From contig CBDASK010000003.1 of the NCBI GenBank assembly GCA_965199495.1, positions 288,001 through 352,000 of the forward strand: a stretch of 64,000 bases of DNA. Direction: 5' to 3'. Source of the DNA: Abditibacterium sp. Lineage in GTDB: Bacteria > Armatimonadota > Abditibacteriia > Abditibacteriales > Abditibacteriaceae. This document shows, piece by piece, positions 42,401 through 45,400 of the stretch. Made by a program: the position numbers. Numbering within the stretch: position 1 is the stretch's first letter; the number at the start of each line of letters is the position of its first letter.

Positions 42401-45400
42401 CGAAACCATTATCGTCCTCGATTTCGGGGCGCAATACGCGCAACTCATCGCGCGCAAAGTCCGCGCGTGCCGCGTTTACTGCGAAATCATGCCGCACGAC
42501 GCCACGCTCGAAGATATTTTGGCGCGTAACCCACAAGGTATCATTTTTTCGGGCGGGCCATCTTCGGTCTACGAAGTCGAGGCACCGCAATGCGCCGAAG
42601 GATTGTTCCATTGCGGCGTGCCGATTTTGGGCATTTGCTACGGGCATCAAGTCATGGCGCACATGATGGGCGGGACGGTGACGCCCGCCGACCGTCGCGA
42701 ATTTGGCAAAACCGAACTGCAAGTCGCGCCCGATGCGCTGCTCTACGACGGACTCAATCGCAAACTGCAATGCTGGATGAGCCACGGCGACCTCGTCATT
42801 GAGCCGCCGCCCGGTTTCGTTTCGACCGCCAAAACAGTTTCGACGCCCGTGGCTTCGATGGCCAACGTCGAGAAGAAGCTCTACGGAGTGCAGTATCATC
42901 CCGAAGTGACGCATACGCCCTGGGGCATCGAAATTATTCGCAATTTTTTGTATAGCGTTTGCGAATGTTCGGGCAACTGGACGATGGAAAACTTCGTCGA
43001 AACCGAATCGAAGCGCATTCGCGAAATCGTCGGCGATGGAAGGGTTTTGTGCGCTTTGTCCGGCGGCGTTGACTCCGCCGTGGCTGCTGTTTTGTTGCAT
43101 CACGCGATTGGTTCGCAGTTGACGTGTCTGTTCGTCAATCACGGCTTTTTGCGCAAGAACGAAGCGGAAGAAGTTTGTGAGGCGTTCACCACCCGATACT
43201 CCGATATTCAATTTGAATATGTGGACGCCTCGGCGCGATTTATTAAAATGATGGAAGGCGTGACGGCGCCCGAAGAGAAACGCGTCAAAATCGGCAACGA
43301 GTTCGTGGCGACGTTCGAGCGCGAACTCAAGCGCATCGGGCATCACGATTTTCTGGCGCAGGGCACGCTCTATCCCGACGTTATCGAATCGGGTTCGGGC
43401 AAAGCCGCGAAAATCAAAACGCATCACAACGTCGGAGGCTTGCCCGAAGATATGGAGTTCAAGCTGATCGAACCGTTTCGCACTTTATTCAAAGATGAAG
43501 TGCGCGCATTGGGCGAAGAGTTGGGCTTGCCGTCGGAAATGGTGTGGCGCCAACCGTTTCCCGGCCCCGGATTAGCAATTCGCATTATCGGCGAAGTGAC
43601 GCCCGAACGTTTGGAAGTGTTGCGCGAAGCCGACCATATTTTGATTGACGAGATTAAACGCGCCGGATTGTATCGGCAGATTTGGCAGTGTTTCGCGGCG
43701 CTCTTGCCCACGGTAAACTCAGTCGGTGTGATGGGCGATCAACGGACTTACGCGCATCCGGTCGTGGTGCGCGCGGTGACGAGCGAAGACGGTATGACCA
43801 GCGATTGGGCGCGCATGCCGTACGAAGTTTTGGAGACGATTTCCAATCGCATCGTCAACGAAGTGAGCGGCGTCAATCGCGTGGTTTACGACGTGACGAG
43901 CAAGCCACCGGCGACGATTGAGTGGGAATAGGTTTTTGGTTTAGTTTATGGCGATTCCTTGTTTGGGGAGAGCGATGACTGTTGCCCCTCACCCCAGCCC
44001 TCTCCCACAGGAGAGGGAGCCACCTGCCCCAAAGTCTTCGTCGCTTCAACTGTCTTTGAAAGAGAGTTCAAAACCACAATAATTTCTTGCGAGTGGCTCC
44101 CTCTCCTGTGGGAGAGGGCTGGGGTGAGGGGCAACAGTCATCGCTCTCCCCAAACAAGGAATCGCCATAAACTAAACCAAATTTAATCAAACCAAAACCA
44201 TGTCCCATATGATCGAGCGCGCCCGCGAATTGCGCCAAACGCAAACGCCTTACGAAGCGAAATTGTGGAAACTGTTGCGCAACCGCCAACTCGATGGCAC
44301 TAAATTTCGCCGTCAAGTTCCAATCGGCCCTTACTTCGCTGATTTCGCTTGCATCAAAGAAAAGCTCGTCATTGAACTCGACGGCAGCAGCCACGTCGGA
44401 CGCGAAGAACATGACGGCGAACGAGATGCGTTTTTACACAACGACGGCTGGCGCACAATTCGCATTCTCAATCGCGATTTGATGCGCAACGCAGACGGCG
44501 TGTGGCAAACAATTGAACAAATTTTAGAGGAGAAAAAACAATGACTACCGGACACGAAGATGATGTTTTGGCCGCCCTGCGGCAGACCGTTGAAGAGCAA
44601 ATTCGCGCCGCCAACGATGGCGAGAACAATGAACCTTTGCTCATTCAAGGCGCCTCCGCCGAGGAGAATTTGGCGCGCGTTGTGCAGAGCCATCTGCACT
44701 TGCAACAGGAAGTCGCCTTGCTGCGCACCGTGATGCTCAAACTGATTTCGCAGCCGATTGAGTTCGAGAAGTCAGACGCGCACCGTTAAAGCGCATCGTT
44801 AGTTTTGACCTGAAATATGTCACTTACCTCTCAACCATTTCGTCCGCACTCGCTCGACGGTGATATTCATCCGTCCGAAGCCGATGTCGAATCGATTCTG
44901 CTGACGCCCGAACAGATCGCGGCGCGCGTCGCCGAAATGGGCGCTCAAATTTCGCGCGATTACGAAGGTAAAGACCCGGTTTTTGTGTCGGTTCTGGTCG
45001 GCGCCGCCATCTTCACCTCTGATTTGCTGCGTCAAATTACCATTCCCTGCTCGCTTGATTTCATCGCGATTTCGAGTTACGGCAAGGAGACGCGCTCGTC
45101 GGGCGTCGTGCGCATGATGAAAGATTTGGACGAAAGCATCGAAAGCCGCCACGTTATTATTCTCGAAGATATTATTGATACCGGCCTGACGCTGAACTAT
45201 TTGCTCGATAACATCCGCAATCGCAACGTCGCTTCGGTGCGCGTGGCTGCTCTGCTCGACAAGCCATCGCGCCGCCTGACGGACGTGAAAGTGGATTACA
45301 TCGGCTTTGAAGTGCCCGACGAGTTTGTTATCGGTTACGGATTGGATTTCGCCCAGCGTTACCGTAATTTCCCCTATGTCGGAGTGTTGCGCCCCGAAGT

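Follow-up and report, generated by a model that had tools for sequence, protein, structure and literature searches.

Long palindromes of several families at gene ends in an Abditibacterium genome, with a DUF559 endonuclease as candidate partner of one family

The palindromes that occur in large numbers in the genome of Abditibacterium sp., a soil bacterium, are shown by sequence comparison to be a mix of at least six sequence families and not a single element type. The patterns seen between related genomes make it probable that they form several populations of palindromic elements, small and non-autonomous, which insert at the ends of genes. The palindrome at 43935–44181 of the window (the whole stretch of 64,000 nucleotides analysed) is, as judged by pattern matching, an inverted doublet of BoxC/TM_ECO-type modules and not a GTAG REP, and the DUF559 endonuclease gene next to it encodes a candidate nuclease partner of this palindrome family. 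REP-type repeats are a textbook feature of Proteobacteria. Here about 2% of an Abditibacteriota genome consists of coexisting palindrome families, some with a RAYT, which extends REP biology to a barely studied phylum and provides a compact case for studying palindrome populations that share one genome. In what follows G000 is the genome studied here, G011 is the nearest species, and coordinates with the prefix C3 count along the whole contig.

Palindromes were located by a scan for inverted 11-mer seeds no more than 700 nt apart, with arm-to-arm alignment of at least 75%. This gave 749 palindromes in the genome, 615 of at least 80 nt and 486 of at least 100 nt, the longest being 429 nt and the total 94.7 kb; the corresponding figures in the initial annotation (797, 633, 529, 429–460 nt and about 100 kb) are thus borne out by an independent scan. 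Relative to the 3666 genes of a crude ORF caller, 82% of the palindromes have less than 20% of their length within ORF calls. Of the 1881 spacers longer than 90 nt, 587 contain a palindrome that is 60 nt or longer, and occupancy is 41% for convergent (128/312), 34% for tandem (411/1200) and 13% for divergent spacers (48/369), close to the 49, 34 and 11% reported before. The median distance from stop codon to palindrome is 15–20 nt (15 nt in tandem spacers, where 11 nt had been given). The earlier statement that one in three gene 3′ ends carries such a structure is too strong, as the third holds for spacers longer than 90 nt (587/1881) and the occupied ones make up 18% of all 3274 spacers. As a control for chance, at least eight co-diagonal inverted seeds were found in 619 of the 1881 spacers and in none of 1881 shuffled ones. 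The stop codon lies inside a palindrome in 93 of the 3666 genes and is TAG in 46 of these 93 (698/3666 genome-wide), and in convergent pairs both genes terminate within the palindrome arms. That GTAG REPs supply stop codons is already known (PMC3733652).

Long perfect stems in an assembly of only three contigs could in principle be assembly artefacts, for example fold-back chimeras of long reads, and the short-read Logan contigs of four public runs do end at 43964 and resume at 44152, leaving the palindrome unspanned. Contigs that end some 30 nt into each arm are, however, what a 31-mer graph is expected to give at an inverted repeat. Moreover, copies within a family differ among themselves, and the same families recur in other species that were assembled independently, in some cases into hundreds of contigs. 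We therefore consider an artefact extremely improbable. As separate observations on the public data, no RNA data set was listed among 12 public runs, and run X2 gave identical pieces at low depth and is not a close strain.

The palindrome at 43935–44181 (C3:331935–332181; parts in Table 1) begins 3 nt 3′ of the guaA stop codon, as described previously, and stops 18 nt short of the DUF559 start codon (ATG at 44200). It is 247 nt long with a perfect stem of 94 bp, in agreement with the stem of about 100 bp first reported, and an inverted-repeat search returned arms of 123 nt each (43935–44057 and 44059–44181) that are 88% complementary. In structure prediction about 94 consecutive pairs form both as RNA (−208.8 kcal/mol, z −25.3) and as DNA (−129.4 kcal/mol, z −22.5), none of 200 shuffles folding as well, so that two inverted modules and their spacer fold as one long hairpin. 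In the copy map (word 11, E 1e-3) the left outer arm matches itself and its partner only; it weakly resembles (about 65–75%) the outer arm of a copy located at C3:4556830–4557082 and has no match in 30 relatives. The sub-core arm differs at four positions from the copy at C3:4556903, and all four differences are present on both arms. A sigma-70-like site at 44056–44083 (+), directed towards the DUF559 gene, is putative, being a consensus match alone. Two Rfam candidates were rejected, mir-3158 (50.1 bits, cut-off 97) and, on the same bases as the left-arm module, whalefall-1 (18.7 bits, cut-off 37); these sub-threshold scores are due to the long hairpin and the C/G-run module and not to membership.

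Table 1. Features of the window discussed in the text
Feature	Position	Strand	Basis or remark
Classic GTAG REP doublet (REPIN), largest family	496..595		perfect arms of 35 nt
Palindrome, GTAG-type arms	9599..9709		palindrome scan
Second BoxC/TM-type doublet	10603..10792		subfamily loop also upstream of DUF559 copy 2 at C3:227890
Palindrome of GTCATTCTGAGCG family	17543..17677		family assignment
guaA (GMP synthase) ORF	42384..43931	+	ORF list; relatives 98–52% identical, closest Abditibacterium / Abditibacteriaceae
Left outer arm, 26 nt	43935..43960		locus-specific; perfect complement of 44156–44181
Left sub-core arm	43961..43985		common to few closest copies
BoxC/TM_ECO-type module, left arm	43986..44017	-	C-run hairpin then G-run; pattern match
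Central spacer	44018..44098		folds and family alignment: mostly unpaired, small central hairpin, motif conserved among family copies
BoxC/TM_ECO-type module, right arm	44099..44130	+	pattern match
Right sub-core arm	44131..44155		copy map, family alignment
Right outer arm, 26 nt	44156..44181		complementary to 43935–43960
DUF559 (Vsr-like PD-(D/E)xK) endonuclease gene, 114 aa	44200..44544	+	Pfam PF04480, E 4.4e-37
Perfect hairpin, 73 nt	57946..58018		palindrome scan; unclassified

The published BoxC/PIT/TM_ECO consensus consists of a C-run block, a loop of 3–6 nt, a G-run block, 3 nt and a second G-run block (Holder et al., 2015, PMC4666352), and the arm module fits it with its C-run hairpin, 3-nt linker and G-run. 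The pattern matches twice in the window, once in each arm of the palindrome, and never in 100 shuffles; because its first block was written with 8 bases where the consensus has 9, the match in the window deviates from the published form by one position. The GTAG tag is absent at both modules. Like the known repeats the element is intergenic, is found at loci with variable surroundings and forms a tandem inverted pair, as at five sites in E. coli MG1655 (PMC4666352). It differs in that the inverted pair lies within about 50 nt of extra complementary arm per side and in the adjoining DUF559 gene; near TM_ECO sites no activity giving genetic mobility was found, according to the sections of that paper drawn on here.

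The protein encoded by this gene resembles the ‘endonuclease-like protein’ of PDB entry 3hrl (E 1.8e-19), and its association with palindromes recurs. Within the genus a palindrome lies immediately upstream at 15 of 19 DUF559 loci and only downstream at two, and the two loci that lack one have a single upstream hairpin. Inverted repeats are present at 14 of 24 loci from further genera and families of this phylum (18 if single hairpins are counted, the remaining six having no hairpins) and at 10 of 12 in other phyla (Sinorhizobium, Azospirillum, Sphingomonas, Qipengyuania, Shinella, Photobacterium, Picosynechococcus, E. coli and N. gonorrhoeae), with no hairpins at the Deinococcus loci L179 and L184; the adjacency therefore extends to other Armatimonadota, Proteobacteria and one cyanobacterium. 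As background, the strict hairpin pattern was absent from all 20 pieces of 20 kb taken at random from G011 and occurred in 3 of 80 guaA loci, exactly those bearing the palindrome, and these three have a DUF559 gene or DUF559-like sequence alongside. At the guaA locus of G011 the palindrome and the DUF559 gene are both missing. Doublets flank the gene on both sides at loci L127, L175, L180, L183 and L187, and at the locus in the window an intact gene stands beside inverted modules with the doublet on its 5′ side only. The three paralogues in G000 each adjoin a different subfamily that has gene-less copies elsewhere: loop subfamilies match copies 1 and 2 one-to-one and copy 3 adjoins a third. 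As the palindrome is not a GTAG REP and is a BoxC/TM_ECO-type doublet tied to DUF559, it may be regarded as the 5′ partner of the nuclease gene at least as much as the 3′ end of guaA.

Hairpins can be abundant without DUF559. The hairpin-rich genomes G121 (97% complete, 202 hairpins) and G062 (100% complete, 62 hairpins) gave no DUF559 match even at E 0.01, and G011 has three DUF559 genes as against only one strict-pattern hairpin. In the phylum sample at least 10 hairpins were counted in 12 of 68 genomes without DUF559 versus 26 of 53 with it, in a hand tally that ignores kinship. A nuclease paired with cognate repeats outside the RAYT family has a precedent in the Ssn (GIY-YIG) nucleases and their NTS/SRM repeats, where a small nuclease gene likewise goes with dispersed hairpin-type repeats that its product recognises (Chenal et al., 2025, PMC11893778). 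The fold is different, GIY-YIG as opposed to the Vsr-like PD-(D/E)xK of DUF559. The wider proposal is that DUF559 nucleases are the missing partners of the BoxC/PIT/TM_ECO repeats in a RAYT-independent system of nuclease and miniature palindromes across phyla, in which each of the three G000 paralogues keeps its own subfamily and the giant stems are kept by DNA-level correction of the arms; this we put forward tentatively, as a possibility that leans towards the doubtful. Since the 1990s, to our knowledge, neither an origin nor an enzyme has been established for the BoxC/TM repeats, and our literature search found no description of a DUF559–palindrome pairing. As the neighbourhood is consistent across the genus, the phylum and several other phyla, the question of the BoxC/TM enzyme becomes testable with a small protein and an oligonucleotide.

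The other families were resolved to different degrees. The 688 palindromes of at least 60 nt were assigned to REP1 (87), the GTCATT family (117), other GTAG types (81), CACAGAG (61), GCGAAT (20) and BoxC/TM (14), with 308 unclassified. GTAG-tagged hairpin modules are arranged as inverted doublets, and the tag is present in REP1, the largest REP family, and in the REPs that flank one Y1 gene (F). The spacing within REP1 doublets is fixed at about 70 nt, and the two REP1 subfamilies differ by two compensated stem pairs. There are 256 REP1 copies in G000, 167 in G011 and 170 in G004, and none in the other 10 of the 13 genus genomes or in 80 other genomes of the phylum. A core 22-mer credited with 153 copies in the initial annotation was found 71 times as an exact match (both strands), the degenerate family numbering 234–256. 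Four single-copy Y1 (RAYT/IS200-like) genes each lie between their own REPs; all four carry Pfam Y1_Tnp and have IS200 or REP_Tyr_transpos as the nearest NCBIfam models. Inverted flanking REPs with 17–25 further copies each are found at genes A, B and F, and inverted flanks with no further copies at gene C. Neither REP1 nor the family of the palindrome at 43935–44181 occurs in the flanks of any of the six Y1_Tnp loci of this genome, which is 95% complete.

These properties correspond in many respects to REP/REPIN–RAYT systems, for which the sections of two reports drawn on here (Bertels and Rainey, 2011, PMC3116915; Di Nocera et al., 2013, PMC3733652) describe imperfect short hairpins tagged at the 5′ end with GTAG, inverted doublets that fold into long hairpins, extragenic location in hundreds of copies, clade-specific populations, compensated arm changes, single-copy Y1 transposase genes between their own REPs and stop codons supplied by GTAG. 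The present case differs in its host (Abditibacteriota), in the many coexisting families, in stems of 94–100 bp with complementarity far past the REP, and in that the largest family has no adjoining RAYT and the element at 43935–44181 has neither GTAG nor RAYT. The REP-like reading offered earlier accordingly applies to the GTAG doublets, the Y1 genes with their own REPs, the clustering at gene ends and the lack of an RNA-type mismatch bias, but not to the very example chosen for it, which is without GTAG and linked to DUF559. As for MITEs of DDE transposons, inverted ends are present, and no direct duplication was seen at the filled/empty junctions read, which at 84% genome identity are too diverged for a firm reading. 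Among the matches listed in a search of the Abditibacterium literature, none dealt with genome repeats by title.

The position of the palindromes at gene 3′ ends, with occupancy falling from convergent through tandem to divergent spacers, would also be consistent with each palindrome being a terminator or a hairpin for RNA stability or processing in its own right under selection on RNA structure, the repeats then being convergent or duplicated regulatory modules. Distant Abditibacteriaceae carry unrelated hairpins of 50–80 nt directly after guaA, and REPs are known to affect mRNA ends (PMC3733652). Intrinsic (Rho-independent) terminators similarly have a hairpin soon after the stop codon and are enriched between convergent genes, but they have a T tract, and the stems here are 5–10 times longer, multi-copy and not conserved at orthologous spacers. 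No T enrichment was found 3′ of 462 palindromes in tandem spacers (a mean of 3.06 T in 12 nt on the sense strand after the hairpin versus 3.30 A on the mirror side), and no terminator-like site was found on the + strand of the element at 43935–44181. Mismatches of the G:T type number 994 and of the A:C type 940, so that there is no G:U excess, which upholds the absence of bias noted before (830 versus 776). Occupancy of orthologous spacers in G011 is nearly independent of that in G000 (odds ratio 1.66, p 0.068), co-occupied spacers differ in family (1 of 13 the same versus 2.6 expected), and hundreds of near-identical copies with a clade-specific distribution are hard to reconcile with selection on each hairpin. 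The palindromes are not classic terminators, and we think it improbable that selection on RNA structure accounts for them.

Insertion of mobile elements at gene ends is favoured instead by the turnover between species. In 244 collinear spacers of G000 and G011 a palindrome is present in both genomes in 62, in G000 only in 70, in G011 only in 39 and in neither in 73, and where the spacer holds one palindrome in G000 (102 cases), its G011 counterpart is 40 nt or shorter in 25. Whole palindromes are thus shown by comparison of the aligned spacers to be gained and lost fast between species, and the unit that is present or absent is usually the whole palindrome with its outer arms. Within the genome the two arms of one copy tend to change together: in 503 nearest-neighbour pairs there were 2341 sites at which the arms of each copy agree against those of the other copy, compared with 655 and 604 for the other 2:2 patterns, an excess that stems partly from outer arms that are possibly non-homologous. 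The pattern of whole-element copying prevails in 143 of the 503 pairs. Co-evolution of the arms is not universal, since the similarity of an arm to its partner (0.82) is about equal to that to the nearest arm of another copy (median 0.84), with no general own-arm excess. For a quartet comparison of orthologous palindromes between G000 and G011, homologous arms were recognisable in only 1 of the 62 co-occupied spacers, with A and X at 18 each. Compensatory changes are common in REPINs (PMC3116915).

The outer arms raise a separate question. Among the 615 palindromes of at least 80 nt, 172 have an outermost 24 nt with no other copy at 19/24 or better, and in 157 of these 172 it pairs with the partner arm; complementary outer arms as described earlier therefore exist, but their single-copy status holds less well, since permissive BLAST finds weak similarity elsewhere for nearly all. 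The idea that outer arms are younger than cores found no support, pairing being 85.5% at unique and 94.7% at repeated positions (only 13 informative palindromes). One possible origin is fold-back (template-switch) copying of the flank beside an inserted core, by which palindromes would grow outward; template switching is able to create perfect hairpins (PMC8794818), an inverted copy of one flank fits at C3:813369, C3:4086131 and (in reverse) C3:1841050, and the empty allele matches one outer arm (score at least 10) in 5 of 66 cases versus none with reversed arms. Over the 66 filled/empty comparisons, however, own outer arms score 5.88 and those of other palindromes 5.55 (p 0.63; against reversed arms p 0.07), the unique outer parts pair no better than the repeated inner ones, and an element at C3:45538 with unique arms of 39 nt is wholly absent in G011; where present, it takes the place of the upstream protein's C-terminus. 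Fold-back copying, one of the mechanisms first suggested, thus finds no general support as the route to outer arms and we consider it unlikely.

Nesting might alternatively reflect preferential insertion into the apex of existing hairpins, whether native or older elements. REP dimers within longer palindromes and IS insertion into REPs have been reported (PMC3733652), and single cases can be cited: at C3:1841050 G000 has a 21-bp hairpin whose sequence forms the outer arms of a palindrome of 159 nt in G011, at C3:923731 G011 has a palindrome of about 300 nt within the counterpart of a G000 TM module, and the G004 version of the palindrome at C3:3333957 contains in its loop a 540-nt stretch beginning with ATG. 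At the available relatedness insertion looks the same as central deletion, though, C3:1840245 is clearly a deletion remnant formed via a 6-nt microhomology, and most empty alleles lack the outer-arm hairpin. The earlier proposal of insertion into older hairpins thus survives as isolated anecdotes, and as a general explanation of nesting it too seems doubtful.

The reading that we prefer, several populations of inserting palindromic elements, could operate as follows. GTAG families would be moved by their RAYTs via single-stranded hairpin intermediates, as proposed for REPINs, and BoxC/TM doublets may be miniature gene-less relatives of a DUF559 cassette, the nuclease recognising their hairpin modules. 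Once a copy has inserted, its unconstrained outer parts would diverge from those of other copies, and complementarity between its two arms would be preserved by a process at the level of DNA, either hairpin-templated correction (template switching) or selection acting on the hairpin formed by single-stranded DNA. Consequences for transcripts, such as 3′ end protection and stop codon supply, would be by-products. Template-switch (quasipalindrome) mutation offers a parallel in that it makes or keeps perfect stems at the DNA level, with compensated changes in one step (PMC8794818), but the test for flank copying was negative overall here. The genome constitutes a natural data set on the DNA-level upkeep of long palindromes, in the form of arm co-evolution that has no RNA-type bias. 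Long palindromes are usually unstable in bacteria.

Further palindromes in the window are listed in Table 1 and include a GTAG doublet of the largest family. The second BoxC/TM-type doublet has no adjoining nuclease gene, and the whole element is absent in G011, where the spacer is 17 nt as against 233 nt in G000.

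The palindromes were surveyed afresh and independently, by seeding with inverted 11-mers up to 700 nt apart followed by arm-to-arm alignment (at least 75%), with a gene set from a simple ORF caller (3666 genes). The genome (4.81 Mb in three contigs, 55.7% G+C, 95% complete) yielded 749 palindromes, of which 615 reach 80 nt and 486 reach 100 nt; the longest measures 429 nt and together they span 94.7 kb. They occupy 587 of the 1881 spacers above 90 nt, at rates of 41% between convergent, 34% between tandem and 13% between divergent genes, and in the chance control 0 of 1881 shuffled spacers scored against 619 observed. 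The palindrome numbers of the initial annotation are thus reproduced and the observation is real and well measured, although its statement that a third of all gene 3' ends carry such a structure is true of spacers longer than 90 nt but not overall, where the figure is 18% of all spacers.

The palindrome behind guaA (a gene whose closest relatives carry the names Abditibacterium or Abditibacteriaceae) has arms of 123 nt that are 88% complementary and 1 nt apart by inverted-repeat search. Both its RNA and DNA folds show ~94 consecutive base pairs enclosing a partly open centre that holds a small hairpin (−208.8 kcal/mol, z −25 for RNA; −129.4 kcal/mol, z −22.5 for DNA), and none of 200 shuffles folded as well. 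The start codon of a DUF559 gene, encoding a small Vsr-like nuclease, follows 18 nt beyond its end. Short-read Logan contigs from the likely source run stop ~30 nt inside each arm, at 43964 and 44152, and palindromes like this one will break k-mer assemblies.

Features at the palindrome behind guaA (window positions)
Feature	Position	Strand	Remarks
guaA	42384..43931		stop codon 3 nt before palindrome
Palindrome	43935-44181		247 nt
Rfam whalefall-1 (RF01762)	43985-44019	-	sub-threshold (18.7 bits, cut-off 37)
BoxC/TM-type module	43986-44017	-	consensus pattern match; 0 in 100 shuffles
Sigma-70-like site	44056-44083	+	in central spacer; 10/12 consensus positions; oriented towards DUF559
Rfam whalefall-1 (RF01762)	44097-44131	+	sub-threshold (18.7 bits, cut-off 37)
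BoxC/TM-type module	44099-44130	+	consensus pattern match; 0 in 100 shuffles
DUF559 / Vsr-like PD-(D/E)xK nuclease ORF, 114 aa	44200..44544		Pfam E 4.4e-37; PDB 3hrl 'endonuclease-like protein' E 1.8e-19
82-aa ORF	44541-44789	+	4-nt overlap with DUF559 stop; without Pfam match

Each arm of this element carries a C-run hairpin, 3 nt and then a G-run, and no GTAG tag is present in it. With one position relaxed, its two modules fit the BoxC/PIT/TM_ECO intrastrand-triplex consensus in the part of Holder et al. (PMC4666352) used here. The reading of the palindromes as REP-like modules stands for much of the genome but not for the very example chosen, which is of the BoxC/TM class, lacks GTAG and is paired with a DUF559 gene. 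The whalefall-1 matches coincide exactly with both modules, and the metagenomic 'RNA motif' may represent this class of DNA repeat. The sigma-70-like site overlaps a motif conserved in the centre of other family copies. The genome holds 32 BoxC/TM-type hairpins at ~19 loci, in two loop subfamilies: a CACA-loop subfamily of three doublets, the one behind guaA included, and a second with ~15 loci, one of them upstream of another DUF559 gene (C3:227890). Next to a third such gene (C3:3626092) is a palindrome from yet another, related C-run family, and this family too has dispersed copies. The two best DUF559 paralogues in the genome share 57% identity.

This neighbourhood is general. DUF559 is present in 12 of the 13 genomes of the genus, and of 30 loci fetched the 19 with full flanks were examined: a long palindrome lies 25-70 nt upstream in 15 and downstream only in two, while the remaining two have none by inverted-repeat search but do have a single hairpin upstream. 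The C-run/G-run core is visible in 15 of these 17 palindromes, the arm sequences read being those of all loci except L131 and L144. Many more DUF559 genes in the fragmented assemblies of relatives have their 5' side 60-150 nt from a contig end, as expected if the repeat lies on that side. In other genera and families of the phylum hairpin pairs were found at 14 of 24 DUF559 loci (18 of 24 counting single hairpins), and in other phyla hairpins occur at 10 of 12 loci drawn from named records (Sinorhizobium, two Azospirillum, Sphingomonas, Qipengyuania, Shinella, Photobacterium, Picosynechococcus, E. coli and N. gonorrhoeae), two Deinococcus loci being without them; the Sinorhizobium module is nearly identical in sequence to that of the Abditibacterium genome G004. 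The background is low: none of 20 random 20-kb stretches from the nearest species (G011) contained the strict pattern, and 3 of 80 guaA loci did, all three being palindrome-bearing Abditibacterium loci where a DUF559 gene or DUF559-like sequence adjoins the palindrome. At the guaA locus the palindrome and a DUF559 gene or DUF559-like sequence are both there in the genome under study and in G004, G005 and G006; in G011 both are absent and another ORF is found instead. The guaA loci of distant Abditibacteriaceae (L010-L018) have an AT-rich 50-80-nt palindrome of their own directly after the stop, built of short internal repeats and unrelated in sequence between genomes.

Among the papers listed by a literature search on 'DUF559', none deals with repeats as judged by title, and the part of Holder et al. 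(PMC4666352) drawn upon states that mobility functions were never found near TM_ECO. Across the phylum sample, at least 10 hairpins were counted in 26 of 53 genomes with DUF559 versus 12 of 68 without (a hand tally, not corrected for kinship). This tally, two hairpin-rich genomes in which DUF559 had no match even at E 0.01 (G121, 202 hairpins; G062, 62 hairpins) and G011, which has three DUF559 genes yet one strict hairpin, argue against strict dependence on DUF559.

By k-mer assembly and pattern classes the palindromes could be divided into several families. A GTAG-tagged REP with a 6+3-bp hairpin has 256 copies, mostly doublets of ~94 nt; 117 palindromes belong to a GTCATTCTGAGCG family, 81 to other GTAG types, 61 to a family with CACAGAG repeats and 20 to a GCGAATAAATTCGC family. 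The C-run/G-run family has 14 members and is the class with the greatest length (median 198 nt), and 308 palindromes fall outside these named classes. The same k-mer assembly contained a 29-31-nt repeat (count 131) that looks like a CRISPR repeat and a 14-21-mer (up to 165 copies) that resembles a coding motif from a large family of paralogous proteins. The big REP family has 167 copies in G011 and 170 in G004; no copy was found in the 10 remaining genomes of the genus, nor in 80 further ones from the phylum. Its two subfamilies are set apart by two compensated stem pairs, which argues for a protein that reads the hairpin. Y1 transposase matches occur at six loci, four of which are intact single genes between their own inverted REPs, three of these REP types having 17-25 further copies; the nearest NCBIfam models are IS200 (two) and 'REP-associated tyrosine transposase' (two), mostly under curated cut-offs. 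A stop codon lies inside a palindrome in 93 of 3666 genes, with TAG over-represented (46 of 93 versus 698 of 3666 overall), and in several convergent pairs both genes terminate within the two arms. In the portion of Di Nocera et al. (PMC3733652) consulted, GTAG REPs provide TAG stops and REP dimers occur within longer palindromes. The GTAG/Y1 part of the genome is a REP/REPIN-RAYT landscape, of which no prior description in this phylum was found among the papers listed by a literature search on Abditibacterium, judged by title. An IS200/IS605-type locus (L082/L085, C3:2809190-2810816) has split Y1_Tnp matches beside ~1.2 kb of DNA without annotation, whose opposite strand might carry a TnpB-like gene; no REP flanks or other copies of it were found in this genome. 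At L084 (C3:3722018-3724104) two adjacent ORFs beside Y1 gene A look like one gene split by an intein-like (Hint) segment, the first closing with a Hint-like N-terminal portion and the second opening with a C-terminal splice-like motif.

The four arms were aligned in each of 503 nearest-neighbour palindrome pairs. Both arms of one copy were alike against both arms of the other at 2341 sites, the alternative 2:2 patterns accounting for 655 and 604 sites and singletons for 2835; the pattern in which a copy's own arms agree comes out ahead in 298 pairs and behind in 143. Two classes of pair are real: plain whole-element copies, asymmetries and loop included, and pairs with only a common core, in which a 30-50-nt outer arm differs between copies and pairs perfectly within each. 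The nearest copy of the guaA element (C3:4556830) has an identical core and a sub-core alike at 20 of 24 positions, each of the four differences being paired; its outer arms are ~65-75% similar and its centre is unrelated. The single-copy outer arms of the initial annotation were recovered under a 19-of-24 criterion (unique outermost tile in 172 of 615 palindromes, paired in 157) but not with permissive BLAST, by which almost none is without relatives. Because of the agreement counts, this copy comparison and the uniqueness criteria, we take the outer arms to be weakly constrained segments of old family members, the two arms of which change together, with the cores held by recognition; compensatory changes are common in REPINs in the part of Bertels and Rainey (PMC3116915) used here. 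Fold-back copying, by which the outer arm would arise as an inverted duplicate of the adjacent flank, fits three anecdotal loci, but 66 filled/empty comparisons do not bear it out as a general rule, and the unique parts pair no better than the repeated parts. The 94-bp perfect stem would be kept by template-switching correction or by selection on a single-stranded DNA hairpin. From comparative patterns we infer that a RAYT or DUF559 may mobilise the elements and that arms may be corrected.

The palindromes are not classic terminators and are not conserved in place. Downstream of 462 palindromes from tandem spacers there is no T tract (a mean of 3.06 T per 12 nt versus 3.30 A on the mirror side), and arm mismatches show no wobble bias (G:T 994, A:C 940). 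For G011 1.57 Mb was fetched (~84% identity in aligned parts), giving 244 collinear spacers with a palindrome in both species in 62, in ours only in 70, in G011 only in 39 and in neither in 73 (odds ratio 1.66, p 0.068). Of 13 spacers occupied and classified in both, one holds the same family in the two species (2.6 expected), arms are recognisably homologous in 1 of 62 co-occupied pairs, and of the 102 spacers holding one palindrome in our genome, 25 have a G011 counterpart of no more than 40 nt. These co-occupancy, family and short-spacer counts indicate that palindromes appear and disappear as whole units on the time scale over which species diverge; in one case a deletion via a 6-nt microhomology has left a remnant. 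A few persist, such as C3:3333957, where the arms contain the ends of both convergent genes in our genome, G011 and G004, and a synonymous position is C/C in ours, T/T in G004 and T/C in G011. In the G004 ortholog of this palindrome (L200, G004:C8, 2290-2900) the arms lie ~540 nt apart, and the stretch between them begins with ATG and may be a small gene.
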